Of a stretch of DNA of 59,025 nt, positions 18,726 through 58,811 are shown piece by piece (positions within the stretch are counted from its first letter, which is position 1; the number at the start of each line of letters is the position of its first letter). The position numbers and the translations under genes are program-made. The DNA comes from Thermoplasmata archaeon (GTDB taxonomy: Archaea; Thermoplasmatota; Thermoplasmata; Halarchaeoplasmatales; Halarchaeoplasmataceae): contig JAWOBZ010000003.1 of the NCBI GenBank assembly GCA_046484045.1, positions 1 through 59,025 of the forward strand. Direction: 5' to 3'. Under the pieces are notes generated by a model. That model saw only the letters and a program-made list of their open reading frames with translations. It was not told where the DNA came from and did not search any database.

Positions 18726-18733
18726 GAACTTAT

Positions 18734-37468: not shown

Positions 37469-40400
37469 TTAGTAGGTTACGTCCCAAGTGTAGGTTGTAT
37501 CTAGGTCTAGGTATAACCAGTACGCTTCTCCTGGATTCAATGTGTGATCTCCAGGTGTATGATCGTATGCTATATTGTATGTCGCTGATGCATCGTAGTA
37601 CCCTATAACAGAAACATCTGCAGGTGCGTCCGTACCGGATGTGCTGCTCGGGTAGGAAACCATGTTCCAACCAGGATACAATGTGATACTAGTGGTATCC
37701 GGTTTCGAATCGCCCATAACGACTAGATCATCTGTTCCAGTCATGTGGACCCAAATACCCATTCCGCTGGTCCATGTGGAAAGATCGTTGTATGTGTCAC
37801 TTCTTCCGGGAACGTATGTCTTCCATTCACCTATTGAAGCGTCGTAGCACATAACTTTGTCGTAGTTACCTGCAATGCCGTTTGTGGCATCATCGAGGAT
37901 CGAAGTTAGACTTGTATCCGTTCTCGTCAGGTTGTAGGACAAGAAATGCCATCCGTTATGACTGCCGCCTGCATCCAATGTTCCGAGATCGTGGAAAGGT
38001 TGTGTTGGTGATGGTTCCTCTTGATCAGATGTGAATCCACTTTCACGTCCGTCCGCGTCTATTGCACAGACTCTGTACCACCATATTGTCGAATCGGCTG
38101 TTCCTGCACCGCTGTCTACGTAGCTGTAACTCGCAGATTCGTCTGCTGTTACGTTTGTGTATACTGATGCGGTATCCAAACCTGCTTGTGTGTCCGCCCT
38201 GTATATCTCGTAGTGATCTACATCGTTGTCGCCGCCGCCGTCGTCTGCACTTGCCGTCCAGTTGACTGCGTTGTCATCGGTTGATCCTCCGCTGCCTGAA
38301 GATTCGATGTACAAGTGGTCCACATATAGTGTACCCTGTGTTTCACCATTGGCAGCTGTTGTATCTGTAATCTGTACATCAACGGCGTCTCCATTAGCAA
38401 CGCCTGTAAGTTCCCAACTTAGATATGTATCTGTATCACTACCTGCAGTGATTTCTCCTAGATTGGTGTATCCACCACCGTTAACTTGATAGTTAACGTC
38501 GTACGCTTCGTCATCTTCTCGGTAAGCGTCGAGATAAAGCACGAAGGGCGTATTGGCTCCACTTATTGAAATGGAATATACAACATCCACTTCATAGGCT
38601 GGATTACTTGGTGGCCCACCGGTTCGAGTTTCCGTAACCTGGTGATAACTGTTGTCCTGAGTATGGGTGAACGTGTGATCGTTGGTTTCTCCTTCACCAG
38701 TATTCACAGTCGATGAATCGGATGTATCTTCTGTACTTGATACTCCATAATGCTCAACGGTCAATCCGCTTGGTGCATCTGGGAAGTTGTATATCTCGAA
38801 GACGTCGTCACTGGTGTCTGTTGTCTGAGCATAATCGTTGAACGTATTGTTGGTACCACTGGCTGTACCTCTTACAAGGCATTGATCACTGGTGTCATCG
38901 GGTACCGTCCAGGTATAAGACCCTGTGTCTTCGATATTTTCAACTATATCTGTGTAGGTCGCACCGTTATCGGTACTGTATTCAAGATCGATACTGTAAC
39001 CTTGTTGGTAATCTCCGGGGTCAGCATCCCATGTTATATCGTGGTTTGTTCCTGCTTCCCAACTTTCTCCACCATTTGGTGTAAGGATTGTTATACTCGG
39101 AGTATCTAGACCAAGAATTTCGAAATAATCGTCACTCTCATCTTGGCCGCTCATACCTAGGTCATCATGTATTGTTACCCTCACAAGACAAGTCGTACTT
39201 GGGTCTCTGGGTACCCTCCAGTTGTATGATTCATTAGATGCCGACAAACCGGTTGTGATCTCTTCCCAATTGCCACCACCATCTGAGGAGTAATGTAGAT
39301 CCGCTGTGGTGACGGTTCCATCACCAGCTGTATAACTCCAAGTGATATCGTGGTACTCTCCTGCTTTCCATTGTTCTCCTCCATTCGGCGATAAAACTCT
39401 AGCTGAAGGTGGTTCGCTACTCGTAATGGTGAAAGTAGCGTCACTTGAATCTCTTCCCGACAATCCTTGATCATCTACTACGGTTCCTCGAACTAAACAC
39501 TGGTCGCTATCCTCGTTGGGTACACTCCAAGTGTATGTACCATCATCTGGTTCTCCAGCAGCGATCTCAGTCCACGCGTTGCCGTTGTCCACACTATAGT
39601 GTAGATTTACGTGAGATATCGGGTTGGTCATTTCCGTTGTTGTCCATGTTATTTCACGATCTTCTCCGAAAGCCCAGTTTTCGCCACCGTTAGGTGATGT
39701 AATTTCTATTTGAGGTGGTTCTGAACTTGAAACGCTCATAGTTATGTCATCGATGTTCCAGCCGACGCCTTCCACTGCGGCATCGGATGCAAAGAAGAAC
39801 TTACACTGAACTCTTGTAGCCACTCCATCGATCCAGGGTGAAAGGTCGAGTCTCTCCTGTCTCCAACCGCCTGAATCTCCGCCCCATACTTCTTGACCGG
39901 CAAGGGGGGTATCTCCATAATCGGCATAAACCGTACCATCGTAACCTCCGTCTGTGGTTCCTCTTTCCCAATCTGTATTATCGGTTCGTACATCTACTAC
40001 ACCGCCGTCCCAGTAATCATTACCATCTGGGGGTTCCGTATCGTATTCGTGCCAAAATAGCATTTCTGCAGAGTTAGCCGCGCTGATATCGATCCAAGGT
40101 GTGGTCAGGTTATCACACCATGAGTTACCGTATCCACCGTTACCTATGTTGAAAGCGTAACTACCGCTGTAAACTTCGTCAGACCATATCTGCCATCTCT
40201 CAGCTGATTTGGATGGTGATGGGCAGGGTATCTCGGTCCAATTCACCCAACCGGCTTCTACATCGTCTGTAGAACCTGCTGTGAATGAGTTAACTGAAGT
40301 AGTAGTAGTAAGCTCAGCTTCATTCGTTATAACTAGCTCGTAATTATATGACAAATCATCATCCAATTGGTCTACTGCGATTGCATGAGTGGTCTTGAAC

Positions 40401-42421
40401 CTCGTTTCAGATGCAGAATGATCTACTGGTGGGTCCGATAGACCGTAATTAACAACTACGGTGGAAGGTTCATCTACTGTAAATTCGATCAACGTTGCTA
40501 TCTTATTTGTTTCAGTAGGTCCAGAAGTTACAACCGGAGGTGTCGCGTCTATCTCCGCAGTGTCTGTTTTATCACCGTGTGAAGCATCTGCATACGTGAC
40601 TGTAATCGTATCTCCACCACTTACCAACAATGTTCCCGCATCGTCCGTTGCTGAACAGGGTATAGTTCCTACCCATATGTGGTCGTATTTTGCATCAACA
40701 GAAAGTGATAACGTCTCTGTCTCATCTGGACTGGTCACATCAACGGCCACACCGCCCGCACCGGATAAGTCGGAATCGACAACCTGAATACCGATGGTAT
40801 CTTCGACTGCATATTTCGTTTGATCGAAAGATACAGATCCATCAGGATAAGTGAATGTTGTCCACATCACGCACGGATTACTCGCCGGTGCATCCGGTGA
40901 GTTGATGGTTATATCATCGTAATTGACCGTATTGTAATCGTATGGATCGTTATCGCTGTTATCATAGTACTCTACGTAGAAACTGTCCATGGTACTTGCT
41001 GAACCTGAAGATTCTGCCATCTGTAGGTAGAAATAATTGGCACCGTTTCCTTGGTTCCATTCATCTGAGAAATCTGTTACATCGATCGCCATGAAAGACG
41101 GATAAGGATGTCTTGTCTTACTAGCACCGTCCCATAACGGTTTTAGCGTATCTTCAGGATACGGGTTGTCACCGCCGTCTTCTAACGCGATTCCCATGGT
41201 GATACCAGGATCTCTGTCACCTTCATCACTGAAGGTCCATGTACTCAAGAGCTCTGGTGATTTTGCATCGGTATCGTCGTAAACAGCTCCCGTACCTGCA
41301 CCACCTTTGAGTTCGTAAGTCCAATTTAAAAATAGCGTCTTGTAACAGTCATAGGTCATCCAGTACATACCGGCGTATTGGTGTGTGGAATCATATGGAC
41401 CCCAACCTGTGCCCCAAGAATTGGCAACCAAAAAGGCACCTTCTTCAGGGCTTCCGTCCGGATCGGTCATTTGGTCATCGTAACCTACGATCGTATTCGC
41501 GTGATTTAATTCTTCCTCAGTACCCCAATCATCGGTTGATATCACTTCATCGTCCTGCCAGTCTCCCCACATATTAGTTGGGTAAGCGCTTGCGTCTATA
41601 CCGAAACCTACGAGTCTTCCTTCATCGATCCTGGTCTTGATGGCGTTGATAGCTGTATCGTCGTCGTTGTTAGCTGTCATGTAGTGTCCTATAGACTTGA
41701 ACTGTGCTGCACTCCTCCATGCGGATTCACTTCCCCAGGATGAGTAATCACTGTCCGTGTAGGGCATCTCAGCGTAGTTAGAGTTTCCGACTGAAGTGGA
41801 TAGATCCCAAAGACCTGCCCAATTTGTTCCTTCGTCTTCTCCATTGTTTATCATGTTGTAAGACCATGCGGGACTCATCACGTAGTCTGGATTATCCAGG
41901 TTGTTCCACTCTCCCCCGGATACATCTTGGTTATACGCCTGTGCTTGCTGGAAGGTCAGAGCGTAATATGTAGCGGACCACGCACAGCAGGAGCCCTGCT
42001 GTCCTTGATCTCCCATTGGGGGCATGTAAGGGCTCGTTGTATAATCAGTTGATGCCCTTGTTGAGGGTTCCTCTGCCCTGACATCATCATCGCTGTCATC
42101 TACTCTTATCTCCAATGTGCCTATCATCTCATTGTATTGTTGTTCCGTAGGCGGGGCCATACCTGTACCACGGCCGTCTATGACCTGATTGTAGTTCTTA
42201 CCAGGTTCTCTTACACCGAAAATACTCTTCAATTGTTCTATGTCATTCTTAGTAGCGTATCTGTAATTTGTTTCCGTTTTGCTCACATCATTTTCAATAT
42301 TCTGTTCATCAACATTATCGGCTTCACCACCATAATTGAATATGGCAATGGATAATCCTGATACTATCAGGAAAAAAGCAACCAATATTGCTAATACAGA
42401 AGGTATTCGTTTTCTTTTCAT
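37469..42421 (-). CDS. giant secreted or anchored papain-family (C1) cysteine peptidase with many accessory beta-sandwich domains
   Basis: N-terminal signal anchor 'IPSVLAILVAFFLIVSGLSIAIF'. Catalytic motifs are 'QGQQGSCCAWSATYY' (Cys codons 41984-41989), 'NHANTIVGYDD' and 'ANSWGTGWG'. GGAGG lies 7 nt upstream of the ATG. Confidence 0.85.
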   Translation of the reverse strand: MKRKRIPSVLAILVAFFLIVSGLSIAIFNYGGEADNVDEQNIENDVSKTETNYRYATKNDIEQLKSIFGVREPGKNYNQVIDGRGTGMAPPTEQQYNEMIGTLEIRVDDSDDDVRAEEPSTRASTDYTTSPYMPPMGDQGQQGSCCAWSATYYALTFQQAQAYNQDVSGGEWNNLDNPDYVMSPAWSYNMINNGEDEGTNWAGLWDLSTSVGNSNYAEMPYTDSDYSSWGSESAWRSAAQFKSIGHYMTANNDDDTAINAIKTRIDEGRLVGFGIDASAYPTNMWGDWQDDEVISTDDWGTEEELNHANTIVGYDDQMTDPDGSPEEGAFLVANSWGTGWGPYDSTHQYAGMYWMTYDCYKTLFLNWTYELKGGAGTGAVYDDTDAKSPELLSTWTFSDEGDRDPGITMGIALEDGGDNPYPEDTLKPLWDGASKTRHPYPSFMAIDVTDFSDEWNQGNGANYFYLQMAESSGSASTMDSFYVEYYDNSDNDPYDYNTVNYDDITINSPDAPASNPCVMWTTFTYPDGSVSFDQTKYAVEDTIGIQVVDSDLSGAGGVAVDVTSPDETETLSLSVDAKYDHIWVGTIPCSATDDAGTLLVSGGDTITVTYADASHGDKTDTAEIDATPPVVTSGPTETNKIATLIEFTVDEPSTVVVNYGLSDPPVDHSASETRFKTTHAIAVDQLDDDLSYNYELVITNEAELTTTTSVNSFTAGSTDDVEAGWVNWTEIPCPSPSKSAERWQIWSDEVYSGSYAFNIGNGGYGNSWCDNLTTPWIDISAANSAEMLFWHEYDTEPPDGNDYWDGGVVDVRTDNTDWERGTTDGGYDGTVYADYGDTPLAGQEVWGGDSGGWRQERLDLSPWIDGVATRVQCKFFFASDAAVEGVGWNIDDITMSVSSSEPPQIEITSPNGGENWAFGEDREITWTTTEMTNPISHVNLHYSVDNGNAWTEIAAGEPDDGTYTWSVPNEDSDQCLVRGTVVDDQGLSGRDSSDATFTITSSEPPSARVLSPNGGEQWKAGEYHDITWSYTAGDGTVTTADLHYSSDGGGNWEEITTGLSASNESYNWRVPRDPSTTCLVRVTIHDDLGMSGQDESDDYFEILGLDTPSITILTPNGGESWEAGTNHDITWDADPGDYQQGYSIDLEYSTDNGATYTDIVENIEDTGSYTWTVPDDTSDQCLVRGTASGTNNTFNDYAQTTDTSDDVFEIYNFPDAPSGLTVEHYGVSSTEDTSDSSTVNTGEGETNDHTFTHTQDNSYHQVTETRTGGPPSNPAYEVDVVYSISISGANTPFVLYLDAYREDDEAYDVNYQVNGGGYTNLGEITAGSDTDTYLSWELTGVANGDAVDVQITDTTAANGETQGTLYVDHLYIESSGSGGSTDDNAVNWTASADDGGGDNDVDHYEIYRADTQAGLDTASVYTNVTADESASYSYVDSGAGTADSTIWWYRVCAIDADGRESGFTSDQEEPSPTQPFHDLGTLDAGGSHNGWHFLSYNLTRTDTSLTSILDDATNGIAGNYDKVMCYDASIGEWKTYVPGRSDTYNDLSTWTSGMGIWVHMTGTDDLVVMGDSKPDTTSITLYPGWNMVSYPSSTSGTDAPADVSVIGYYDASATYNIAYDHTPGDHTLNPGEAYWLYLDLDTTYTWDVTY
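38783..39721 (-). repeat. three tandem 102-108-aa Ig-like modules (SPNGGE.W...I.W...Y..D.G..W..I)
   Basis: Modules start at residues 901 (39721), 1003 (39415) and 1106 (39106): 'EPPQIEITSPNGGENW', 'EPPSARVLSPNGGEQW', 'DTPSITILTPNGGESW'. Confidence 0.8.
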
Positions 42422-42683: not shown

Positions 42684-45600
42684 ATGGAATCAGGAGGAAA
42701 ATCAATGCCTATAAGAAAACCACTGAGTAACCAAATATTAAAGATATTTACGGTAATCATCTTTTTAACTATCATATCTTCTATCTTCGCTATCCCCTAT
42801 AGTAATGAAGATAATGAAGATAGAGATGAGAAAAAAAATGATGATGATTTAACAAGCTTATCATTAGATGAGAAAGTTGAAGAAAAATCTAAAACCTTCA
42901 CCGATTCAACATCTAGTCGTCAAGAAGAACAATCAGATGGATGGATTGATAAATTAACTCTCGGGGTGAGGGAGGAAATGAACACACCGTCTAAATTGAT
43001 CTCCGTTATGGTCGTGACGACAGATCTAGGGACATTGCATCAAAAATTAAGGGGATACGGGGGTGTAATACATACAGATTCTGACGCTGTTAAACCTGAA
43101 CACTTCGATTACTCAGCACTTTCTTATCAACAAAGTAATGGCATAGTTATGTCAAGAGAAATTGACGTACCGGTATCATCTATCAAGGATATCGCTGAAC
43201 TATCAGAAGTAATCAAAATACTCAAAAAACCTGAGATACATACTATGAGTTCCGATGTGACTTTTAACAGACCTCAACAAGATGTAGGTGCTCAACCCTA
43301 CGGTACGCTCAATAAATCCCTGCTTAAGATACACAATGCTGACAAAGTTTGGGAAAACGAGATATACGGTGATGATACAAACATCGCCATCGTTGATACC
43401 GGCACTGATTTTTCCCACGCTGATCTCATTGATCAATGGGCTGTGGCACCCGAGGGAGATTATAGTGGTGCTGGATGGCCTTTGATGTTAGACCCAGGTA
43501 GCATGGATTTATATACGACTAGGAATCAAACCGGAGTAAATCACACTGTCGAAGGTGGTTATCCAGTTGGCTTTGAGGACAGTAGTAGTTCACAATACTC
43601 ACAGACTAACTTTACGTTTTCACCAACAACCCAACCCGTTAATGTAGATAATGAAACAATTGTATATCGTTACGATGAAGTTCTTCCCAAGTCACAAGAC
43701 GATTACGAGGCCTCAAAGGCTCATATTGACCTAAAAGGGGATGGATTATATTTAGAAGAAAAAACTCATGTGGTTAAACCCACGGAGCGCATTACTGCAG
43801 GGGATTACGTGGATAAGTCCAGTGACAACGTTGAAGACCTTTTAAAGAATAAGGAAACATCAACTGGCCCATCAACAACAGTAGAGAATGATGGATGGTA
43901 CACGTTAAGCAGCACAGGTGATTGGGGCAAATATTCATCCTTAGCGGTCGATACAGACGACAATATACATGTGGCTTTTTATGATGAAGAGGAACATGTT
44001 CTTATGTATGCATTTAAAGATGTTGATACCTGGTCCTACGATGTTGTTGATAACGGCACCGATGTAGGTAAATATTGTTCTTTGGCATTGAAACCGAACG
44101 GTAAACCGGCTGTGAGCTATTACGATGCATTTAATCAAGATATTAAATATGCTGTAAAAAACGGTGACGGATGGGAGGTAGAAAGGATAGACCACAGCGT
44201 CAACGACAGGGATGCAGGTAAATATTCCTCACTTGCTATTGACAGCACAGGAAAAGCCATAATCAGTTTCTATGAATCTCAACAGGATATGGCATGGTAT
44301 GCTAAAGGTGAATTCGGTAGCTTCTCTTTAAGGGGTTTATCCAAAGGAAGTGGTGAGGGGGGCACACATACATCTGTCGCAGTAGATAGTAACAACGATA
44401 TACATTTTAGCTACGTTAACAAATCTGATAATTTACTATATGCGAAGTGGGACGGCAGTTGGACAAGGTCAACTATAGATGACTCAGGTGGTGTAGGAGA
44501 ATATTGTTCAATCAAAATTGATAGTTCAAATAATCCCCATGTTAGCTACTATGATGGGGATAACGGCGACCTTAAGTACGCATATTATTCGTCTGGTAGT
44601 TGGACGACGACACCGTTGGACAGCGATGGAGATGTGGGAAAGTACACTTCAATTGCATTGGATAACAATGATAATCCATACATAAGTTATTACGACGTTA
44701 CCAATGGTGATTTAAAGATCATGTTCTTTGATGTCATTTGGTATGAGCGTATTGTAGATGAATCGGGCGACGTCGGATCTTACACCTCAATTGACTTTAA
44801 CAGTGAATATACCCCCGTAATTTCATATTACTTTACAGACAATATGTTTTTGAAAATCGCATCGGTGGAACCCACGGAAATCAATATAGAAAACATCGGT
44901 GATGAAAAAGGTAAAGACATGTGTGTGGGTGGATTCCAAACGGGATCAAAGGAAGGTTTCGTTAAGGATTTATACTTGGATATTGCTTACAGCGTTAACA
45001 CTGATAATGGTGATCCAAATTTGTGGAATGAAAATTCGATTTTACTGGTGCACGGTGATAAAAAGACTTCCGCTTTAGATATATCCCCTTCGGACGGAGA
45101 AACATATGTCCAAAAGACTATCCCGATTACTGAAATAGCAAATATAAATTATTTGAGTAATATCTCAAAACTTAACATTTTTTACGATTTCAATTATTCA
45201 GGACCCGCACCGGGACCGACCGTCAGCTTCGATCATATCGATATTATATGTGATTACCACGCGTATCCGAAATTGCATCTTAAAAAATACATCAAGAATG
45301 AAACCGGTTTGGTTAGACCAGACAACACCATCTTGAGTAGAACAGTTACCGATCCCTCATCATTAACGCCTTCTGACGGTGATTCTTATATCGTTCCCGT
45401 AAATGCAGTGGGAGAATGGGAAGGTCAATCAAACAAGATAGCAGAATGGGATTCTTCCAAACACGAATGGGAGTTTTCGACCCCTTCAGAGGACGGTTTT
45501 GAAGTTTGGGTGGAGGACGAACACATACAGCTTGATTGGAACAGTGAGGATGTAAAATGGCTATTAAATGATTTCAATTTAAGATACGTTCCAGATTATA

Positions 45601-48600
45601 AATTATCTGGTCGTTTCGAGGTTTACAATAAAAGTAATCAAACTTACTTCTATGCGAACAATAATCAGTATCTCACACTTTTTGAAGGTGACGAAACCGA
45701 CCAAGTAAATTCTACTTACAATTTCACCCAGCACCACCTTGTGGATGTTGAAATATTTTTTGTGAATAAAAATGGCCGTCGTTTCGAATGGAACGAAGAT
45801 AATTACACGTTGGACACCTTCAACGGGTCTATAAGGTTAGATACCGACATTCCCCCCGGCACCTTCGTAAAGTCAAATTATGAATGGTTTTATCCCATGG
45901 GGGGTATGAGTTTAAAAGAGGTCGCATTTGAAGGACGTGATAAAAATGATAGGTTTAGGATTTATGATATAAATAAAATGTTCATAAAGAACGTTCAGGT
46001 CTATTATCGTAATAACGAAAGAGAACCTTACATCATATTACCTGAGGAAGATTATAAAATTAATCATGAAGAAGGTAACATCACACTTCTTACAAACATA
46101 CCCGAAGGGTCAATGGTAGCGATCGACTATGAATGGCACTACCTCAGCGGAGGGCGTAAGGGAGATGAAAAGGTGGTCACAGGTAATAAATCCGATGAAA
46201 CTAATACTGTTTATGACCTCGAACGGTACCCTCTATTGAATGAAAGCGCTTATTTAGAGTATGAAGATGGAACCATTAATGAAATCGACCAGAAGGACAA
46301 TTACACCCTCGATTATCAAAATGGTACGTTGACCTTACTAATGGATATACCAGATGAGGCTAATTTCAATATATCATATGACTGGTACTTCTTCGGTTTC
46401 GATGAGCAGTTTGAGCTAAATACCACCACGGGCGTTTTCACAAACAAATACAACATAAAAGATAACACCGAACTGACATTCACTTACGAATGCTATCGGA
46501 GATGGGGAGAAAACAGATACTCTACCTTCGAAAAGAAAGGTTCTTTACAGTTGTTCGATAAAATAGAGATGAATGAAGAATTGCTTGCGTCGTACACATG
46601 TGGTAAAGGGTTGGTGACACTAGATGTAGAGATACCGAAGGCACAGTATGCAAGCAATGAGACATATGGTCAAGAATACCTTTCAGGGGCCTATAACATC
46701 ACTGACTTACCATTCAAATCTCAGAGTGGGTGGTATCGATTCGGCATATCAAAATCGATGCATTTGGCTGACATATGGAATCAGCAAGTGGGTATGCTGT
46801 TGGTTGACAGCGAAGTTCCAGGGGTTTATGATCAAGTCTTCGTGGATATAGATAATGACTATGATTTCGGTGATGAGAAACCCGTCAACAAATCCAGTCC
46901 ATTGGCATTTACAGAAGTAAAATCCTACAATGGAAGAGAGGGGTCACCTATGAGGTATATACACAATTATGACCTTGCATGGATGGGTAATAAAGCAGAA
47001 GACGCTAACATTGTACTTTCTGCAGGTCTGCTGTACTGGATATCAGACGGTGTAAATACCCTCCCTTACGGGGAAAGATACGCTGAACATTTTGAATATG
47101 AAGAAGAGAACATTCCTGTACCAAAACAGGGAAATCTGGTCGCATTCTACGATGACTGGGGTACCCATGGAACATCTACTGCCTCTATGGCGGTGGGCAC
47201 TGGTTCTTCGTATCCAGTTAATTACCTGAAGAATAGTTTTGGTGAACAAATAGCGGATCTTTATTCGGATATTAATTCCCAGGGGTTCGCTCCAAATTCT
47301 AAAGTGATGGGGGTGTCTTTGCTTGGTCCAGCAGGTGGATCCGCAGAAGCCGGTTGGTTGTTCGCCGCTGAAGGTTATGACGGGATTCCAGATACCGGTG
47401 ACGAAGCGGATATTAACAGCAATAGCTGGGGTTCCTTCGTTGATAACTCTGGTTGGTTCGTATACGATCGATTAGCAATGAACATAACAGAGATGTACCC
47501 CCATACCACTCTAGTGGCTTCCGCAGGAAACCAAGGGAACGGGTACGGTACCATCGGGTCACCTGGTTCGTCTCCAGCAGTGATAACGGTTGGTGCAGGT
47601 ACTAACATGGCATACAAAGACTATATGGGTAACGACCTAGGATTCCTTTATCCTGGAGGGGAATCGCTCTATCAGTTCGGTATAGGTGAAGGTGATCCCA
47701 TGAACGCCCGCCCACACGGAGACATAGTGAGTTTCTCCAGTTTAGGGCCGACTAAGATGGGGCAACCAGGTATCGATGTTTATGCTGCTGGAGCCTTCGG
47801 TATGGCTGCACTACCAATAAACGAACCATTCACATACGCATACGAGCATGAAAGTGGTCAGTTAGATGGTGCAATACCTGACGGTTGGTTCCTTTGGCAA
47901 CAAACAATGAAACAGGACAGACCTTTACCTCATAATAACTCACATACTTTTGCATTATTCTCCGGAACAAGTATGGCAGCTCCTATCACTGCAGGCGTCT
48001 GCGCTCTTGTTCACCAAGTGTATGAAAGTAAACATGGTTCACCTCCCACAAATGATGAGATGAAACGCATAATCATGTCCAGTGCTGACGATTACGGTTA
48101 TGACGTATTACAGCAGGGTGGCGGATGGTTGAACGCAAGCAGGGCTGTAGAGATGGCGAACCAATCTGCTGGAGTAATGCCTGGTTTAGATTTCTGGGCT
48201 CCTGGTTCTTATGACGGGATATCCCGTAGAGGCATGGTCAACTTGATGAAACCGAATGAGAGCGACGACATACATGTCGAATTAGACAACTACGGGAGCC
48301 ATGACATCTCAAATTCTGATGGTATATCAAGTGAAACTATCATAGAAAAAGGTAAAAAACACAAGTACGGAGAGAACATTATACTTTCCGAGAAAGGCAT
48401 ATCAAGAGAATCTATTGATCTGATACATACGCTCTGGCTTGAAAATAACAGTGCAGTTATAGGCCCACAGGGAGAAAATTCTTCTTCTATCCTAGAGTAT
48501 CTACCTTCTTACAATATAACTGACGATCCTCTTATATACAATACTGGTGATGTGACAGATGAACTGTTATTCTCCGGTAATGAAAGCGACGAAACCGGGC

Positions 48601-51600
48601 AGTATCACGAATTCTATCAACACAACATGACCTATGTTGATGTTTACAAAAGCGGAAAGATAGAAAATGAAACGATTTTGATCGGTGACTCTGGAAATAA
48701 CGTAGGTGACTCGAATATGTTGAATGAACGCGGAATCGTATCTTCAAGTGTATACAACAGTGGACGTATAGAAAATGAAACTGTTTTTATCGGAACAGAT
48801 ATTAACGAAACTGGTTATACATACAACTTTGCTGAAAGGAACCTTTACGATGTAACTGTGTTGTATGACGATTCCAATACAAAAACGATCTGGGATGTGG
48901 ATAATTACTCTTTCGATTACGAAAGGGGTGTTATAACCTCCGAAACCGATATACCCAAAGGTGCCTATGTAAATGTGACCTATAGCTGGGATTATAAAAT
49001 GAGGAATAATTATTATGAGATTGATAAAGAAACCGGTAAGTTCACTCTGGAGGTCGATGTAGGCGACGGTGCCTTGGTGAATGTAACTTATAATTGGAAA
49101 TATTTGATGGAAGAATCGCCGTCAAATTATACCGTTGATTACCTGAATGGAAATATTACATTGAATACCGATATTGATAATGGAACGGACTTGACAGCGA
49201 ATTGGGGGTGGCACTACTTATGGGATACTTCAAATTACCATTTTGACCACGATACTGGAGAGCTCATAGTGATACCCTCCATAGATTTTAATACGAAAAT
49301 TAAAGCCACATACAGCGTTGTAGGGTTACTTCCTGAAAATGATTGTCTTATAAACCCACTTTCAGGAGATTTAACATTGAGCAGATCTTTCAACCACGAT
49401 AAACCTGATATTACAGAAAAGGTGGTCATGGAATATGCCCACAACGGTGTATCCGCTGTAACCTATGAAAAAACTATGGAATTTTCTTTCGATTTCAACT
49501 GGGATTTGATGGATGGTTATATCACAGTAACTAAAGACGGTGTTTTCAAGGGAAACACCGCTGGTAATTGGGAAAAGGTCGTATCAGATGATGGAGATAA
49601 CACACTGAGCAGGATTTTGAACCAGACAGGCTTCCTCAAAGTCACCGCGATAATGGAAAAGACTAGTAATAGCTACATACAAATATACGATTGGCAGGAC
49701 GTAAATGAAACAATCTTTGGTAAAGAGCCCACCAGTAAAGGAGAGAACGGGATATATGACGGTAGAGATGAAAAAGTTAGGTTTACATGGGCTATGGATA
49801 AAAGTCAATACTTGACAGCAGTGGTACGTGACCCCAAAAATAGGGTTCATGATGGTTTGGTACTCGAATCCAAAGTGGCCGGAATGCAAGCTGAAGGAGA
49901 AGGTACGATCGTACTTGAATCATATCAAAAAGAAGAATGGGATTGGATTGATATATCAAACGTATCTAACGATGGATTCGATGCCAAAATTACAGTGCCA
50001 GAAGATGCTGGTGTTGGCGGATATCAAGGTGCCTTTGTTTATGACTGTGGCCAACAATCAAGTTTTGGAGTAATTCCCATATTCGTCAACGTAGCTGGTT
50101 ATCCATCACGAGCTAACGGAAGTTTGGAAATAGGTGGAGAATACGCGAACCATGGATTGTACAGTAACGATAGGATAGGAGCACACGTTGCTTATTATGA
50201 TTCAAGGATATTCTATCTTGATTACGAACTCCTTTTCCCACCCGCAGAAAACGACCATTATATGGCTATAATACAGCACTTGTCTAATCAGTCAACTATG
50301 GAAATTAAAGCCTATGGTGAATCCTTTAGCCCTTACTCGGGTGGTGATTTCGGACCGTTCTCTATGAGTATGATAAGCGAATCCCCGGCTTCTACTGATC
50401 CATATAAAACTATGATACAGGTAGAGGATTACCTCCGTAGAAATCCGGATGGGTTGGTTCTATTGGAGATAAGATGCATTGGGGTCGGATCGGAAGGACC
50501 CATGGGGGAATTGATCAATGGAACCCTAGGTCACATGAAAGTATGGCCTACTGATACTACACGCTATAACGAACCACGTGGTAAAATGAATATTAACGTA
50601 GAAACTAGCTTCGATATAGACGGAGGCATTTCGGTGTTAGCACCGGACTCAGAAGAAGAATCCGGTACAGACTCCGTATCATCACATGACATCGCTCCTT
50701 ATGGGAGTGATTTTGTCAAGTATCTTGCAGAAGCCCCAGATATGCAGGAGGTAGAGCTTCCTGAAGGTGTTTATACGTTTAACTTCCATATATGGGGACT
50801 CTCTGATAGTGACGACTATGACCTAGGTTTGTTCTACGTTATTCCTGACGATTATGATGGATCTATGGAGAATGTACTTGAAATAGAACATCCTCCAGGA
50901 AGTGGTAAAAATATAGAAGTTAAGTTCATGGAATACTGTGCCGATGCTGATGCCGATGAAGACGTTACTTTGATAACTCCTGAGCAGGGGACTTATCTCT
51001 GTAAAGTTGCAGGTTTCACTGTATCGTCTGGGGAATACGATTACCATTGGAAATATTATAGTGAAGGTGAAGCGCTCTATGAGATACAAGATTTGAGTAA
51101 TAAAACCGTTCGTCCAAAAAGTAATGAAACCGATCTGAAATTTAATCTGACGTGGGACATGCCCGTAAATATAGTTAACAAAACCGTTGAAAGCAAGGTT
51201 TTCCTATCACCCACAGCGTCATCCGTAGCACTGACCGAAATAATAACACCAAGTGTGATTTTCGACTATCAAAAACCTGTCCTGGAAGACGTGTCACCAG
51301 GTGATCAGGAGATACTGAACAGCCGAGACGTAGCGATTTCTGCATCTTACGAAGATAAAGGTAAAAGTGGTATAGATATTGACAATATTGTATTATATCT
51401 CGATAATGAAAAACAGGTAGTAAATCCCACTGAAGAACATGTGTCCTTAACCACTGAGGATCTGTCTGATGGTGTCCATGATGTGATGTTAATCGTGACG
51501 GATAAAGCTGGTAACGAAGTTGTAAAAGAATGGTCTTTCGTTGTCGATACAACTGACCCACTCATAGATATATCTCATCCAGCTGATTCGGAGATCACCA

Positions 51601-52676
51601 CAAGAAATGATATGTATGAAATCCAGGGTACCGTCGATGACAACGATGCCATCGTTGTGATAAACGACGATAGAGTTCCCTTGAGTGGAGGCAGTTTTAA
51701 ACATGAGGTCTCTATTAATGAAGGTGAAAACAAATTCACCATAGTTGCTGAAGACGAAGCTGGAAATAAATATGAGGTTATAAGGGAGATAATCCACGAT
51801 ACATCCGATCCAGTTTTAAGAGGCGCTTCTCCGCTATCAACGAACATAGTTACCAATAAAGATCAGATAACGTTCAAAGGCCAAATACATGGAGAGAAAT
51901 TTTTATACAATAATAAAGTAATGATCAACGATAACGAAGTTAAAGTAACTGCAGACGGTTCATTCTACTACATATACGAACTCTTCGAAGGAGAAAATGT
52001 TATTACACGTGAGATTATCGACGCTGCTGGTAACAGAGTTAGTGATACATTTTACATAACTAGAGATACTGAATTAATAGATTTCAAGGTTGACGATATC
52101 GAAAAGATAGACGACGGGACAGTCCTTGTATCCGGAACCGTTGAAGATGACAGTAGCGTTTCTATAAATGGTATACCGGTCAAAGTTCAGCAAGGACAAT
52201 ACAGTAGTGAAATTGATATCATCCCTGGTAGGAGCAACGAAATTATCGTATACGCTGAAGATGAAGCAGGTAATAGTGAACAGATAACTAGGACATATGA
52301 ATCTGTTTCAAGTTCTTCAAAGAAAACATCATCGATATCGGACCATTTGGGTTATTTAATAGGCATCTCCATCGGCGCTCTTATAGTCGGTTTGATTATA
52401 GGTCTATTTTCGATTAAATTCCTTGGAGGTGGATTTAAAAAGGAAACCGAAGGAGATGAACAACAAGAAGAACTAGAAACAGACGAAATCGAAGACATGG
52501 GAGAACCTGTAGATGAAGGGGAAGAGATCAGCGACGAAGAGGAAAAGGTTTCAATAGATGATTCAGGAGCAGATGATGATCTAATAGAGGAAGAGGAAGT
52601 TTCTGATAATAAAGAAACAACCGTAGAAGATCCGGAAGAATTAGGAGATGAACAGGAGGAAAACCTTTCTGAATGA
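42684..52676 (+). CDS. giant membrane-anchored subtilase (S8 family) with a nested multi-domain insertion, C-terminal TM helix and acidic tail
   Basis: Catalytic motifs: 'IAIVDTGTDFSHADL' (Asp238), 'WGTHGTSTASMAVG' (His1495), 'ASAGNQGNG', 'SGTSMAAPITAGVCALV' (Ser1763). N-terminal anchor 'ILKIFTVIIFLTIISSIFAIP'. C-terminal TM 'LGYLIGISIGALIVGLIIGLFSI'. An alternative start is at 42705. Confidence 0.9.
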   Translation: MESGGKSMPIRKPLSNQILKIFTVIIFLTIISSIFAIPYSNEDNEDRDEKKNDDDLTSLSLDEKVEEKSKTFTDSTSSRQEEQSDGWIDKLTLGVREEMNTPSKLISVMVVTTDLGTLHQKLRGYGGVIHTDSDAVKPEHFDYSALSYQQSNGIVMSREIDVPVSSIKDIAELSEVIKILKKPEIHTMSSDVTFNRPQQDVGAQPYGTLNKSLLKIHNADKVWENEIYGDDTNIAIVDTGTDFSHADLIDQWAVAPEGDYSGAGWPLMLDPGSMDLYTTRNQTGVNHTVEGGYPVGFEDSSSSQYSQTNFTFSPTTQPVNVDNETIVYRYDEVLPKSQDDYEASKAHIDLKGDGLYLEEKTHVVKPTERITAGDYVDKSSDNVEDLLKNKETSTGPSTTVENDGWYTLSSTGDWGKYSSLAVDTDDNIHVAFYDEEEHVLMYAFKDVDTWSYDVVDNGTDVGKYCSLALKPNGKPAVSYYDAFNQDIKYAVKNGDGWEVERIDHSVNDRDAGKYSSLAIDSTGKAIISFYESQQDMAWYAKGEFGSFSLRGLSKGSGEGGTHTSVAVDSNNDIHFSYVNKSDNLLYAKWDGSWTRSTIDDSGGVGEYCSIKIDSSNNPHVSYYDGDNGDLKYAYYSSGSWTTTPLDSDGDVGKYTSIALDNNDNPYISYYDVTNGDLKIMFFDVIWYERIVDESGDVGSYTSIDFNSEYTPVISYYFTDNMFLKIASVEPTEINIENIGDEKGKDMCVGGFQTGSKEGFVKDLYLDIAYSVNTDNGDPNLWNENSILLVHGDKKTSALDISPSDGETYVQKTIPITEIANINYLSNISKLNIFYDFNYSGPAPGPTVSFDHIDIICDYHAYPKLHLKKYIKNETGLVRPDNTILSRTVTDPSSLTPSDGDSYIVPVNAVGEWEGQSNKIAEWDSSKHEWEFSTPSEDGFEVWVEDEHIQLDWNSEDVKWLLNDFNLRYVPDYKLSGRFEVYNKSNQTYFYANNNQYLTLFEGDETDQVNSTYNFTQHHLVDVEIFFVNKNGRRFEWNEDNYTLDTFNGSIRLDTDIPPGTFVKSNYEWFYPMGGMSLKEVAFEGRDKNDRFRIYDINKMFIKNVQVYYRNNEREPYIILPEEDYKINHEEGNITLLTNIPEGSMVAIDYEWHYLSGGRKGDEKVVTGNKSDETNTVYDLERYPLLNESAYLEYEDGTINEIDQKDNYTLDYQNGTLTLLMDIPDEANFNISYDWYFFGFDEQFELNTTTGVFTNKYNIKDNTELTFTYECYRRWGENRYSTFEKKGSLQLFDKIEMNEELLASYTCGKGLVTLDVEIPKAQYASNETYGQEYLSGAYNITDLPFKSQSGWYRFGISKSMHLADIWNQQVGMLLVDSEVPGVYDQVFVDIDNDYDFGDEKPVNKSSPLAFTEVKSYNGREGSPMRYIHNYDLAWMGNKAEDANIVLSAGLLYWISDGVNTLPYGERYAEHFEYEEENIPVPKQGNLVAFYDDWGTHGTSTASMAVGTGSSYPVNYLKNSFGEQIADLYSDINSQGFAPNSKVMGVSLLGPAGGSAEAGWLFAAEGYDGIPDTGDEADINSNSWGSFVDNSGWFVYDRLAMNITEMYPHTTLVASAGNQGNGYGTIGSPGSSPAVITVGAGTNMAYKDYMGNDLGFLYPGGESLYQFGIGEGDPMNARPHGDIVSFSSLGPTKMGQPGIDVYAAGAFGMAALPINEPFTYAYEHESGQLDGAIPDGWFLWQQTMKQDRPLPHNNSHTFALFSGTSMAAPITAGVCALVHQVYESKHGSPPTNDEMKRIIMSSADDYGYDVLQQGGGWLNASRAVEMANQSAGVMPGLDFWAPGSYDGISRRGMVNLMKPNESDDIHVELDNYGSHDISNSDGISSETIIEKGKKHKYGENIILSEKGISRESIDLIHTLWLENNSAVIGPQGENSSSILEYLPSYNITDDPLIYNTGDVTDELLFSGNESDETGQYHEFYQHNMTYVDVYKSGKIENETILIGDSGNNVGDSNMLNERGIVSSSVYNSGRIENETVFIGTDINETGYTYNFAERNLYDVTVLYDDSNTKTIWDVDNYSFDYERGVITSETDIPKGAYVNVTYSWDYKMRNNYYEIDKETGKFTLEVDVGDGALVNVTYNWKYLMEESPSNYTVDYLNGNITLNTDIDNGTDLTANWGWHYLWDTSNYHFDHDTGELIVIPSIDFNTKIKATYSVVGLLPENDCLINPLSGDLTLSRSFNHDKPDITEKVVMEYAHNGVSAVTYEKTMEFSFDFNWDLMDGYITVTKDGVFKGNTAGNWEKVVSDDGDNTLSRILNQTGFLKVTAIMEKTSNSYIQIYDWQDVNETIFGKEPTSKGENGIYDGRDEKVRFTWAMDKSQYLTAVVRDPKNRVHDGLVLESKVAGMQAEGEGTIVLESYQKEEWDWIDISNVSNDGFDAKITVPEDAGVGGYQGAFVYDCGQQSSFGVIPIFVNVAGYPSRANGSLEIGGEYANHGLYSNDRIGAHVAYYDSRIFYLDYELLFPPAENDHYMAIIQHLSNQSTMEIKAYGESFSPYSGGDFGPFSMSMISESPASTDPYKTMIQVEDYLRRNPDGLVLLEIRCIGVGSEGPMGELINGTLGHMKVWPTDTTRYNEPRGKMNINVETSFDIDGGISVLAPDSEEESGTDSVSSHDIAPYGSDFVKYLAEAPDMQEVELPEGVYTFNFHIWGLSDSDDYDLGLFYVIPDDYDGSMENVLEIEHPPGSGKNIEVKFMEYCADADADEDVTLITPEQGTYLCKVAGFTVSSGEYDYHWKYYSEGEALYEIQDLSNKTVRPKSNETDLKFNLTWDMPVNIVNKTVESKVFLSPTASSVALTEIITPSVIFDYQKPVLEDVSPGDQEILNSRDVAISASYEDKGKSGIDIDNIVLYLDNEKQVVNPTEEHVSLTTEDLSDGVHDVMLIVTDKAGNEVVKEWSFVVDTTDPLIDISHPADSEITTRNDMYEIQGTVDDNDAIVVINDDRVPLSGGSFKHEVSINEGENKFTIVAEDEAGNKYEVIREIIHDTSDPVLRGASPLSTNIVTNKDQITFKGQIHGEKFLYNNKVMINDNEVKVTADGSFYYIYELFEGENVITREIIDAAGNRVSDTFYITRDTELIDFKVDDIEKIDDGTVLVSGTVEDDSSVSINGIPVKVQQGQYSSEIDIIPGRSNEIIVYAEDEAGNSEQITRTYESVSSSSKKTSSISDHLGYLIGISIGALIVGLIIGLFSIKFLGGGFKKETEGDEQQEELETDEIEDMGEPVDEGEEISDEEEKVSIDDSGADDDLIEEEEVSDNKETTVEDPEELGDEQEENLSE
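43918..44873 (+). repeat. seven tandem 45-50-aa repeats (putative 7-bladed beta-propeller) inside the subtilase insertion
   Basis: Pattern (V/A)GKY(S/C/T)S(L/I)A(V/L/I)D..(N/G).(P/I)(H/A)(V/I)S(Y/F)YD.....L(K/M)YA, seen seven times from 'WGKYSSLAVDTDDNIHVAFYD' to 'VGSYTSIDFNSEYTPVISYYF'. Confidence 0.75.
45798..46602 (+). repeat. cluster 1 of NY.(L/V)D...G.I.L...IP.G..V...Y.W.Y modules (between catalytic Asp and His)
   Basis: 'DNYTLDTFNGSIRLDTDIPPGTFVKSNYEWFY', 'EDYKINHEEGNITLLTNIPEGSMVAIDYEWHY', 'DNYTLDYQNGTLTLLMDIPDEANFNISYDWYF', plus two degenerate copies. Confidence 0.75.
48573..49443 (+). repeat. cluster 2 of the same module family (C-terminal to catalytic Ser)
   Basis: 'DNYSFDYERGVITSETDIPKGAYVNVTYSWDY', 'NYYEIDKETGKFTLEVDVGDGALVNVTYNWKY', 'SNYTVDYLNGNITLNTDIDNGTDLTANWGWHY', 'SNYHFDHDTGELIVIPSIDFNTKIKATYSV'. 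Confidence 0.75.
51264..52304 (+). repeat. four tandem Ig-like (about 85-100 aa) stalk domains preceding the TM anchor
   Basis: Recurrent pattern D(T)..P.I/L ... G(T)V.D ... I(N)....V ... G.F....(I/L).EG.N.(I/F)T(I/R).A.D.AGN.... Confidence 0.65.
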
Positions 52677-53262: not shown

Positions 53263-54411
53263 ATGTCTAAACCTCACGGTGGAAACCTGGTCAACAGGGT
53301 CGTTTCCGACGAGAAAAGGGAAAGGTTACTGGATGAATCCGAAGGTATGAGGAGTCTCCAGCTTTCGAGCCAGCTCAGAAGAGATATGCAGAACATCGCT
53401 TCCGGAGTTTACAGTCCCCTTCAGGGATTCATGTGCCGAGATGATTTCGAGAGCGTAGTAGAACACTCACGATTGGATTCCGATATCGCATGGACTATAC
53501 CGATAGTACTAGATGTCGACGAAGAAACGAAAAAGGATCTGACTGAAGGAGATGAGATAATACTGAAGGCCGAGAACGGCAAGAAGGTCGGTCTGATGGA
53601 TATCGAGGAGATCTACTCGTACGACAAAGACGAATTCGCCAAGAACGTATACGGCACCGATGACATGGGCCACCCAGGAGTTCAGAAGGTCAACAAGATG
53701 AAGGACTACCTGATGGGCGGAGAGATCTACCAACTACAGGAACTGGACAATCCGTTCGAGAAATACCATCTCAAGCCCATGGAAACCAGGATCTTATTCA
53801 AAGAGAAGGGCTGGAGAACGGTCGTCGGGTTCCAGACCAGGAACGTACCACATCTGGGACACGAGTACGTCCAGAAGACGGCACTTACCTTCGTGGACGG
53901 TATCTTTGTAAATCCCATAATCGGAAAGAAAAAAGTCGGTGATTACAAAGACGAAGTGATCCTGAAGGCATACGACGTTCTCATGAATAACTATTACCTG
54001 CAGGACAGGGCGGTTATGAGCATACTCGAAGCCGAGATGCGCTACGCAGGACCGAAAGAGGCTATCTTCCATGCCATAATGAGAAAGAACTTCGGATGTA
54101 CTCACTTCATCGTAGGCAGAGACCACGCAGGAGTGGGAGACTACTACGGACCCTATGCGGCACAGGATATATTCGAGAAGTTCCCTGATCTTGAGATCAC
54201 ACCAGTGTTCTTCAAATCGTTCACGTACTGTGAAAAATGCGGTGGAGCCGTCGACGGATTCATATGTCCACACGATGATAAATACAGGGAAAATTTCAGC
54301 GGTACAAAGATGAGGAAACTTCTACAGGAAGGTAAAACACCGCCTGACCATATGATGAGACCGGAAGTCGCCGAGCTCGTTGCCGGAATAGAAGATAAAT
54401 TCGTTAAGTGA
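53263..54411 (+). CDS. sat: sulfate adenylyltransferase (ATP sulfurylase)
   Basis: 'GFQTRNVPHLGHEY', 'HFIVGRDHAGVGDYYGPYAAQ'. Confidence 0.9.
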   Translation: MSKPHGGNLVNRVVSDEKRERLLDESEGMRSLQLSSQLRRDMQNIASGVYSPLQGFMCRDDFESVVEHSRLDSDIAWTIPIVLDVDEETKKDLTEGDEIILKAENGKKVGLMDIEEIYSYDKDEFAKNVYGTDDMGHPGVQKVNKMKDYLMGGEIYQLQELDNPFEKYHLKPMETRILFKEKGWRTVVGFQTRNVPHLGHEYVQKTALTFVDGIFVNPIIGKKKVGDYKDEVILKAYDVLMNNYYLQDRAVMSILEAEMRYAGPKEAIFHAIMRKNFGCTHFIVGRDHAGVGDYYGPYAAQDIFEKFPDLEITPVFFKSFTYCEKCGGAVDGFICPHDDKYRENFSGTKMRKLLQEGKTPPDHMMRPEVAELVAGIEDKFVK

Positions 54412-55433
54412 TACCTGAACCGGTTGGTAATCATATGAATAAGATAAAGAAAGCCGTCGGGGATAGAGATGGACTTCTCTTACACCACTGGGATACCGAC
54501 GGGATGGTATCCGCTGCGCTGATCCTCAAAGAGCTAGAAAATCATGCGGAGTTCACTAAATTCACTCCCTCTATAGGCAATTATCTTCTGAACGATGAGG
54601 ACAGAAAGAAGATAGAAGATATCGATCCTGAATTCACGATAGTCGTCGACATGGCGCTGCCGGAAGACTCCATAAATTTTCTGAAAAAATTCGGAGAAGT
54701 GTTCATCTTCGACCATCATCTTCAGGAAAGACACGACGTTGTCATCCATCACAATCCTATAATCAACGGTGAGTCACCGAAATCATATCCCAGCGCTTCT
54801 TGGGTAATAAATGAGTATATCGGTGATGAACCGAGTCTGCTTTCCATACTTGGAGCATTCGGAGACCGGGAACAGAAACTGAAGGAGAACCCGTATGCTA
54901 TGGACACCATCAACGGTGTGCTGGAGAAACTTGATGCACGGTTCGACGAAGTCCTCAGATGCGCCTATTATCTGGACTCGAACTACAAAGTTGGAGACCG
55001 GAAAGCGGTAACCGACTCACCTGACTTTTTGAAAGATGTCGATTATCCCTCTCAGATACTGGGGAGAGAAGATCTGAAGGAGAACTACGAAGATCTCAAC
55101 AAGGCGATCGAAGAAGAATCCAGCGGGGAACTGGAGAAGGTCAAAGACAACGTTTTCTACAGGGAGATGGAATCACCCTACAATATCATCTCCACCGTCA
55201 CCAGGAAACTGGCGTGGTCGAGAGATGGAAACATAATCATCGTTGCCAACAGTGAATACAAAGAAGGTGAGACCCAGGTGTATATACGCGGGCCTATACC
55301 TGATTCCGAGAAGATAATCCAGATGGTGAAGAAAGACGGGTATTCAGCAGGCGGTAAGAGTGACGTGGTCGGTATGGTAATACCCACGGAAGAAAAAAAC
55401 CGATTGATGGATGAGATAAAAAATCACTTATGA
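54408..55433 (+). CDS. DHH/DHHA1-family phosphoesterase (NrnA-like; candidate pAp phosphatase)
   Basis: DHH motifs 'HHWDTDGMVSAA', 'IVVDMAL', 'IFDHH', and the C-terminal 'GGKSDVVG'. The GTG at 54408 overlaps the sat stop; an alternative ATG is at 54435. Confidence 0.7.
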   Translation: MIPEPVGNHMNKIKKAVGDRDGLLLHHWDTDGMVSAALILKELENHAEFTKFTPSIGNYLLNDEDRKKIEDIDPEFTIVVDMALPEDSINFLKKFGEVFIFDHHLQERHDVVIHHNPIINGESPKSYPSASWVINEYIGDEPSLLSILGAFGDREQKLKENPYAMDTINGVLEKLDARFDEVLRCAYYLDSNYKVGDRKAVTDSPDFLKDVDYPSQILGREDLKENYEDLNKAIEEESSGELEKVKDNVFYREMESPYNIISTVTRKLAWSRDGNIIIVANSEYKEGETQVYIRGPIPDSEKIIQMVKKDGYSAGGKSDVVGMVIPTEEKNRLMDEIKNHL

Positions 55434-55458
55434 TCAAAATCGAAATGGAGAAGATAAA

Positions 55459-57776: not shown

Positions 57777-57854
57777 GGGGCCATGGGGTAGCTTGGTCGA
57801 TCCTTCGGCGTTTGGGACGCTGGTACCCGAATTCAAATTTCGGTGGCCCCACCA
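57777..57854 (+). tRNA. tRNA-Pro (anticodon UGG), CCA encoded
   Basis: Hand-folded cloverleaf: acceptor GGGGCCA/TGGCCCC, A14/G18G19/A21 in the D loop, anticodon stem CGGCG/CGCTG, loop TTTGGGA, T arm CCGAA-TTCAAAT-TTCGG, discriminator A, then CCA. Confidence 0.9.
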
Positions 57855-58658: not shown

Positions 58659-58738
58659 AAAAATAGGTTTTTACCTCATGAACCCGAGTAAAATAGTGTA
58701 AATTTAACATGGATCATAGATACACAGAAGATTGTAAA

Positions 58739-58811
58739 TGCGGGTGCTGGGATTTGAACCCAGGTAATAGCCTTGGCAAGGCTAGGTGATACCAAACTAC
58801 ACCACACCCGC
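58739..58811 (-). tRNA. tRNA-Gly (anticodon GCC), CCA not encoded
   Basis: The reverse complement folds as acceptor GCGGGTG/CACCCGC, anticodon stem TAGCC/GGCTA, loop TTGCCAA, T arm CTGGG-TTCAAAT-CCCAG, discriminator A. It is followed by TTT. Confidence 0.9.

Follow-up and report, generated by a model that had tools for sequence, protein, structure and literature searches.

Can a subtilisin fold be assembled when its catalytic Asp and His are separated by more than 1,000 residues? This question is raised by a gene in a stretch of 59,025 nucleotides (nt) from a Thermoplasmata archaeon (assembly GCA_046484045.1, contig JAWOBZ010000003.1), hereafter referred to as the window. The gene is a complete open reading frame (42684..52676, + strand), single and uninterrupted, which encodes a membrane-anchored S8 subtilase of 3,330 amino acids (aa). 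The identical protein is found in the public gene call, where it starts at Met8, seven codons later, and has 3,323 aa. An earlier note on this DNA, made from the letters alone, had contrasted the Asp-His distance with the much shorter ones of subtilisin and tripeptidyl peptidase II and had offered two alternatives for it: either the protease folds around a very large insertion, or the N-terminal Asp strand is vestigial. The analysis described here showed that the homology to the S8 domain is split, that there is one point of insertion only, that the orthologues are collinear, and that both catalytic pieces are strongly conserved. The first alternative is favoured by these and other results, and the second is disfavoured.

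Split homology to the S8 domain

A motif scan located Asp238 in IAIVDTGTDFSHADL (IAIVDTGTDF; codon at nt 43395-43397), His1495 in WGTHGTSTA (nt 47166-47168), the oxyanion Asn1616 in ASAGNQGNG (SAGNQGNGYG; nt 47529-47531), and Ser1763 in SGTSMAAP (nt 47970-47972). The motifs and the triad were confirmed at the positions read in the earlier note, as were the distances of 1,257 residues from Asp to His and 268 residues from His to Ser; the Asp-to-Ser stretch comprises 1,526 aa. The signatures VDTG, THGTS, and SGTSMAAP follow the S8A order of Asp, His, and Ser, and the DTG motif, as opposed to the DDG motif of kexins (S8B), separates S8A from S8B. At the level of sequence, the protein is an S8A subtilase.

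When the intact protein was scanned with the Pfam family Peptidase_S8 (PF00082), the match was confined to residues 1478-1815, which correspond to profile positions 39-287 (97.9 bits; cut-off, 21.8). Since it starts at profile position 39, the Asp block is missing locally, next to the His. No further D[TSG]G motif was found within 250 residues upstream of His1495. A hidden Markov model (HMM) of the family Asp block, run over the whole protein with the filters off and expectation values (E) up to 100, found a single site at residues 217-279 (E = 4e-25), together with an insignificant side fragment at 292-308 (E = 0.11). The second Asp block that the earlier note had named as a possible refutation was therefore detected neither by motif nor by HMM.

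Relatives were used to test whether the N-terminal block is the missing part. The 150 closest cluster representatives were drawn from an exhaustive search of 1.84 billion proteins, and Asp, His, Asn, and Ser were located in each. From 78 relatives with ordinary spacing (185-260 residues), the Asp-to-His segments were used to make a short-member profile. This profile matched the 3,330-aa protein in two pieces: positions 7-108 correspond to residues 215-320 (E = 3.7e-20), and positions 113-256 correspond to residues 1335-1508 (E = 5.5e-41). The two pieces abut, with neither overlap nor missing profile columns, which means that a single insertion of 1,014 residues (residues 321-1334; 43644..46685, + strand) lies at one loop, in the gap between profile positions 108 and 113. 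Thus, the roughly 1000 extra residues that the earlier note had described as nested in the catalytic domain were placed precisely. The split S8 alignment expected there was obtained with the 78-member family profile, though not with PF00082 on the intact protein.

On the N-terminal side of the insertion lies the S8 N-block (residues 206-320; 43299..43643, + strand). Besides the first helices, it contains Asp238 on strand beta-1 and the initial half of the baseline segment, by which we mean the roughly 200-residue accessory segment typical of the subfamily between Asp and His. On the other side lie the second half of the baseline segment (residues 1335-1477) and the S8 core (residues 1478-1830) with His1495, Asn1616, and Ser1763 (together, 46686..48173, + strand). 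The string MLLVDSEV (around residue 1372) in the former was considered as an alternative Asp strand and rejected, because the Asp-block HMM has no match there and every relative, even the short ones with a DTG block of their own, has the string as a conserved stretch of its baseline segment.

When residues 200-275 were spliced in silico to residues 1478-1830 or 1340-1830, PF00082 matched over its full length (profile positions 1-287 of 288), and the score rose from the intact value to 111.4-111.8 bits. Neither residues 190-340 alone nor residues 1150-1500 alone gave an S8 match with PF00082 at E up to 10; for the N-terminal fragment, this is because the Asp block is too short to score alone. 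In comparisons with solved structures, the N-block of the family profile was aligned to subtilisin BPN' 8-44 and Tk-SP 13-48 (i-E = 1.7e-6), and that of the orthogroup profile to residues 26-62 of an intracellular serine protease. Each of these chains is also matched a second time, at the His/Ser core, more than 1,000 profile positions further on. With the orthogroup profile, single PDB chains were matched twice, at the N-block and again about 1,400 profile positions later at the His/Ser core; for example, residues 26-62 and 243-295 of 7xr8 were both matched. The spliced constructs, the split profile, and the solved structures, as three independent tests, agree that the N-terminal block is the missing part of the S8 domain.

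Four orthologues of about 2,900-3,100 aa were found in other assemblies, and those with a source name are metagenome-assembled genomes (MAGs) of Thermoplasmatota or Thermoplasmata. BLAST aligns them collinearly with the 3,330-aa protein between about residues 10 and 1,900, either in a single segment or in two that overlap, and the identity is 39-48% in the best BLAST segment and 42-51% in the full-length alignment of the five-member orthogroup. The insert lengths, whose comparison the earlier note had proposed, are similar: the Asp-His distances in the orthologues are 1,187, 1,208, 1,250, and 1,254 residues, and the insertion site is the same, as it also is in many other relatives. Asp238, His1495, Asn1616, and Ser1763 are invariant across the orthogroup. 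By region, the identity is 61-67% in the N-block, 60-70% in the second half of the baseline segment, 57-60% in the core (57-70% for these last two together), and 27-40% in the inserted modules. No part of the protein is more conserved than the N-block, with which the second half of the baseline segment and the His-Ser core are on a par. As a separate observation, a second, truncated N-terminal copy of the gene exists at a contig end (CAYVTG010000001.1, locus L004, 10001-11188) in the MAG that carries the orthologue of locus L002; it is 41% identical to residues 26-424 and suggests putative paralogues within one genome.

Spacing and triad residues among the relatives

In 138 of the 150 representatives (designated by P numbers), all catalytic positions could be mapped, and the following counts refer to these. 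The Asp-His spacing exceeds 300 residues in 57 representatives and is at least 1,000 residues in 12. By these counts, the 3,330-aa protein is the extreme of a continuum and no singular oddity. The triad is intact in 79 of the 81 representatives with a spacing below 300 residues, in 12 of 13 at 300-500, in all 9 at 500-700, in 6 of 23 at 700-1,000, and in 5 of 12 at 1,000 or more. The last five are the 3,330-aa protein and its four orthologues, with no others, and the spacing of 1,257 residues is the largest with an intact triad. A spacing of 1,289 residues was found in P0137, but there Asp replaces the catalytic Ser. Put differently, the intact triad is lacking in 24 of the 35 members with inserts longer than 700 residues versus 2 of the 81 short members.

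Asp, His, Ser, and the oxyanion Asn are all present in 109 of the 138 relatives. With respect to Asp and His, both are kept in 123 relatives and both are lost in 9, while Asp alone is lost in 4 and His alone in 2 (Fisher p ~1e-9, a value in which independence is overstated by shared ancestry). Such co-loss would be expected if the distant Asp works with His and Ser.

In several relatives of 2,200-3,700 aa (P0009, P0044, P0062, P0091, P0097, P0149, P0106, P0086, and P0050), Asp, His, and Ser are all lost while the whole architecture is kept. The replacements are, for example, Thr/Gln/Ala or Thr/Gln/Trp; the latter set occupies the Asp, His, and Ser positions of P0009 (3,078 aa), a catalytically dead relative. 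In another group, Asp and His are kept and the catalytic Ser is changed to Asp (GSD..A), as in P0027, P0115, P0122, P0124, P0146, P0151, and partly P0137 and P0148. In most of these, the oxyanion Asn is also changed to Asp (SAGDYGYGYG). They may be a lineage of pseudo-enzymes with a consistent pattern, or enzymes whose catalytic set has been altered.

When the long members were aligned with the short-member profile, recurrent insertion sites were found near profile positions 48-50, 100-113, about 180, and about 208-210. The 3,330-aa protein uses the second site (100-113) only, and fills it with the largest load. The contents of the sites differ by lineage; in P0010 and its relatives, for example, an alpha/beta domain is followed by a beta-sandwich. 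On these alignments, the Asp-His region can be regarded as an insertion hot spot of the family, in which different domain sets occupy three or four recurrent sites. The relatives occur in Thermoplasmatota, Nitrososphaerota (including Nitrosotalea devanaterra), Bathyarchaeia, and some Chloroflexi and Acidobacteria. In public records and cluster look-ups they are unannotated or named 'S8 family serine peptidase', with no other name. According to the earlier note, common S8 homologues already described with inserts of similar size would have refuted its observation; relatives with such inserts exist, and a literature search for subtilases with very large Asp-His inserts found no description of these proteins.

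The 3,330-aa protein thus shares the Asp block, the baseline segment, the core, and the post-catalytic domains with an uncharacterised archaeal and bacterial S8A subfamily, and differs from its short majority in the 1,014 residues added at one loop. Common to the subfamily are the baseline-segment motifs GWPxxFD, VLVVD..GVYDTVYVDLD.D.DF.DEKP, and SGGMxYFIADG. The earlier note had taken the segment before the His for the ordinary insert of the pyrolysin and tripeptidyl peptidase II (TPPII) type. TPPII, a cytosolic enzyme that forms large oligomers, has an insertion of about 200 residues between Asp and His. TPPII (MEROPS S08.090; PDB 3lxu) is likewise an S8A enzyme with an insertion at the same fold position and a recognisably related core. 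However, a profile of the baseline segment found no PDB chain at E up to 10, TPPII included, the TPPII chain 3lxu was matched from the His region onward only, and the Pfam scan gave no TPPII-related family besides Peptidase_S8. The 3,330-aa protein also differs from TPPII in its N- and C-terminal hydrophobic segments (signal sequence and membrane anchor). Hence, of that assignment the fold position stood, while no homology was detected: the segment is the baseline segment of the subfamily, and the protein is, as judged by profiles and Pfam domains, not a TPPII. With its large inserts and long C-terminal extension, it fits the general description of the pyrolysin group of S8A in the classification of Siezen and Leunissen (PMC9549277).

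The nested array and its probable role

We examined the contents of the insertion by Pfam scans, repeat analysis, and an AlphaFold2 model of residues 321-1334, which was made from a shallow five-sequence alignment and has a mean predicted local distance difference test (pLDDT) score of 59.7. All elements lie on the + strand. The N-terminal edge is an acidic linker (residues 321-413; 43644..43922) with a pLDDT of 20-31 and an orthologue identity of 26-46%. It is followed by a seven-bladed beta-propeller of the lectin type (residues 414-745; 43923..44918), which is indicated by repeats, model, Foldseek, and profile: seven blades of about 47 residues occupy residues 415-745, and 28 strands were modelled with a pLDDT of 80-93. 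In Foldseek, this propeller resembles the fucose lectins PLL/PHL of Photorhabdus over their full length (template modelling (TM) score, 0.75-0.78) at 12-14% identity. The orthogroup profile weakly matched the chain 7e7n, 'Fucose-binding lectin protein' (E = 6.7e-5), and a weak match to Pfam BNR_4 was also found. The propeller is similar to PLL/PHL and the fucose-lectin chains 7e7n and 4csd in fold and, weakly, in sequence profile; those are free lectins, whereas here the propeller is nested in a protease, and the likeness is one of fold and profile only.

Downstream of the propeller, a beta-sandwich domain (residues 746-870; 44919..45293) was modelled with strands at about 759-858 (model positions 439-538; pLDDT 55-78); the Pfam scan gave no family match for it. 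The DUF2793 domain (residues 882-952; 45327..45539; Pfam E = 7.1e-11) is poorly modelled, and its PHROGs matches include a phage tail-fibre family. Within the orthogroup it is present in the 3,330-aa protein only. Since all four orthologues show a clean gap of 74 residues there, it is a recent gain of a single domain inside the insertion. The remainder consists of three or four beta modules of about 80 residues (residues 961-1334; 45564..46685) with the motif NYTLD..G.I.L..DIP.G..V..YEW, which were recognised by repeat analysis, the model, and a weak DUF2460 match. The seven-blade repeat, the DUF2793 motif, and the repeated modules (about 960-1330) named in the earlier note are accordingly real. 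A PDB sequence search with the insert alone gave one chance-level match and nothing else. Protein splicing was also considered and rejected: the Pfam scans revealed no Hint or intein domain, and the insert consists of the propeller and beta modules.

We consider it probable that the protein is an active surface protease whose catalytic domain is folded around the 1,014-residue nested array, and that the array has a binding or targeting role. It would be a secreted, C-terminally membrane-anchored S8A subtilase, in which two stretches far apart in the sequence make up one catalytic domain. Residues 206-320 would provide the first helices, beta-1, and the first half of the accessory segment; residues 1335-1830 would complete this segment and add the helices of His1495 and Ser1763 as well as the oxyanion Asn1616. 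The two pieces would pack into a normal subtilisin fold with Asp238, His1495, and Ser1763 assembled as a triad, and the enzyme would be active. The array, inserted in a surface loop in the order of acidic linker, lectin-like propeller, beta-sandwich, DUF2793, and beta modules, would hang beside the active site as an arm for binding or targeting, for example to glycans on protein substrates or surfaces. In other subtilases, the smaller insertions of a PA domain or a jellyroll would be the counterparts of such an arm.

The conserved N-block, the invariant triad, and the co-loss of Asp and His favour an active fold around the insertion over a vestigial Asp strand. In addition, P0010, which carries a 375-residue insertion at the same site and was modelled with it, has an N-block with a pLDDT of 85-94 in which beta-1 is a strand, and the core of this model corresponds to subtilisins in Foldseek (probability, 1.0; TM score, 0.5-0.6). 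Several points weigh against an active enzyme. The Foldseek alignment of P0010 covers only the core (about 300 columns), and the packing of its N-block is indicated by pLDDT alone. The co-loss statistic is inflated by common descent of the relatives. Catalytic residues have been lost in 7 of the 12 representatives with a spacing of at least 1,000 residues; very long inserts thus appear often to accompany a loss of activity. Lastly, about 100 residues at the end of the insertion, as well as the DUF2793 region, were modelled with low confidence.

Among the alternatives, maturation into two chains survives best, unlikely as we consider it. Here, the protein would fold as described, and then the acidic linker or another part of the insertion would be cut by the protein itself or by another protease, so that a non-covalent complex of an Asp-bearing and a His/Ser-bearing fragment is formed, or the insert is shed. 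A linker of about 90 residues, poorly modelled and weakly conserved, at the very start of the insertion is consistent with such a cut, and there is a precedent: the streptococcal subtilase SpyCEP consists of two associated fragments after autocleavage between Asp and His. However, the inserted domains are conserved and collinear in the orthologues, which argues for a retained function, and there is no cleavage motif to point to.

A pseudo-protease scaffold seems still less likely. According to this idea, the Asp strand at the N-terminus is only a remnant, no triad is ever formed, and the role of the protein is that of an adhesin or a scaffold for binding at the cell surface. The frequent absence of the triad from long-insert relatives (e.g., P0009, P0149, P0106, and P0086) and the many binding-type modules of the 3,330-aa protein are in its favour. 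Nevertheless, Asp, His, and Ser, which are replaced in pseudo-subtilases such as P0009, are intact in the 3,330-aa protein together with Asn. All four residues are invariant in the five orthologues, whose identity is about 40-50%, and no other region of the protein is conserved better than the N-block. Moreover, the relatives that became pseudo-enzymes replaced Asp together with His and Ser, which is unexpected if Asp is irrelevant. An assembly or gene-calling artefact, in which two genes or contigs were fused and the Asp block and the His/Ser core come from different proteins, was raised because the source is presumably a metagenome assembly, and can be set aside for practical purposes: no positive support was found for such a join, which the earlier note had also named, while the reading frame is single, four orthologues from different assemblies span the whole Asp-to-Ser stretch in BLAST, the two catalytic pieces abut exactly in profile coordinates, and the gene neighbourhood is shared with locus L001.

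Coming back to an active protease folded around its insertion, a broader proposal can be made, which in our estimation is evenly balanced. The Asp-His loop region may be a natural docking site for domain arrays that are gained, lost, and exchanged between lineages while the enzyme stays active throughout; the arrays include lectin propellers, phage-tail-fibre domains, an alpha/beta plus beta-sandwich unit, and small beta modules. The 3,330-aa protein would then be a working hydrolase whose catalytic separation of 1,257 residues is among the widest known within one catalytic domain, and the insert would be a programmable targeting arm next to the active site.

Domain insertion as such is already known. 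PA domains, of the 120-150-residue class, are inserted in the catalytic domains of C5a peptidase, lactocepin, and plant subtilases. In CspB, a jellyroll of about 130 residues interrupts and stabilises the protease domain (PMC3567191). The present case would follow the same principle, in that folded domains lie in a loop of the subtilase domain without destroying it, and differs in that a multi-domain array, about eight times larger and located between Asp and His, takes the place of one domain. New in the present case are the scale, the content of several domains, the location between Asp and His, and the evidence for a family-wide insertion hot spot.

An active enzyme would mean that one Asp-His loop can accommodate folded domains of more than 1,000 residues without preventing the subtilisin fold from forming, far more than the TPPII insert and the CspB jellyroll mentioned above. 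The relatives provide a graded natural series: where Asp and His are kept, the spacing between them extends from about 200 to about 1,290 residues, and in some branches the triad has been lost. Such a series would be useful for studying the tolerance to domain insertion, folding from distant segments, and the decay of enzymes into pseudo-enzymes. The protein is a striking extreme, yet the enzyme family to which it belongs is well known, and it stands at the end of a continuum. It also suggests that uncultured Thermoplasmatota may carry out extracellular proteolysis guided by glycans or surfaces. In the genomes of Marine Group II and of Ca. Proteinoplasmatales, a lineage of Thermoplasmatota, S8A peptidases are reported to be among the dominant extracellular peptidase families (PMC9123169), and this dominance would fit a role in extracellular protein breakdown.

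Flanking regions of the protein and the gene neighbourhood

The regions outside the catalytic domain are described next, and all of them are on the + strand. A Kyte-Doolittle scan revealed hydrophobic segments at both termini, in line with the membrane anchorage claimed in the earlier note. The N-terminal one (about residues 14-40; 42723..42803) would function either as a signal peptide or as an anchor. A propeptide-like region (about residues 85-205; 42936..43298) immediately precedes the catalytic domain; it shows 38-46% orthologue identity and is aligned with relatives from residue 88, and its position suggests a putative propeptide. The C-terminal segment is a predicted transmembrane helix (about residues 3222-3247; 52347..52424), and the highly acidic C-terminal tail that follows (52434..52673) is presumed to be cytoplasmic. 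Among the last 98 residues (3233-3330), the first of which still belong to the hydrophobic segment, 40 are Asp/Glu and 5 are Lys/Arg. This domain layout is that expected of an extracellular, surface-anchored enzyme.

Three regions were distinguished between the catalytic domain and the helix. The first is a second array of modules of about 80 residues (residues 1901-2255; 48384..49448), recognised by repeat analysis and the orthologue alignment. Three of the four orthologues lack this array, and the remaining one has part of it. Given its location after the catalytic domain and this absence, the NYTLD...YEW module type seems to spread both inside and outside the catalytic domain. The second is a conserved post-catalytic region (residues 2256-2860; 49449..51263), which the alignments with orthologues and relatives show to be shared with distant relatives; Pfam gave no family in the scanned part of it. 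The last is an Ig-like stalk (residues 2861-3195; 51264..52268), composed of Big_13 and three Glucodextran_B repeats according to Pfam.

For the gene neighbourhood, a scan of genome contigs with the single protein as the query yielded no loci, whereas a scan with the orthogroup alignment did, including loci L001 and L002 in two related MAGs. Divergent from the S8 gene, with 262 bp between them, a gene on the - strand (37469-42421) encodes a 1,650-aa surface protein with a papain-type Peptidase_C1 domain. The pairing of the Peptidase_C1 and S8 genes is kept in the Thermoplasmatota locus L001 (20-577), and the two giant proteases may form a unit. A 1,445-aa Big_5/TSP3 surface protein is encoded 11 kb upstream of the S8 gene (27435-31772, + strand), and its homologue directly follows the S8 gene in both related MAGs (L001, 10219-13974; L002, 9351-13352). 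This displacement suggests a rearranged cluster of giant surface-protein genes.

Downstream of the S8 gene, sulfate-activation genes (ATP sulfurylase, a DHH-family protein, and APS kinase) are located at 53263-56040 on the + strand, with their counterpart in L001 at 16996-19773. Their products are 70-89% identical to those of L001, whereas the adjacent S8 protein is only 39% identical, which indicates a much faster evolution of the surface protease than of the housekeeping genes beside it. Genes for tRNA-Pro(TGG) (57777-57854, + strand) and tRNA-Gly(GCC) (58738-58812, - strand) were found close to the right end of the window.

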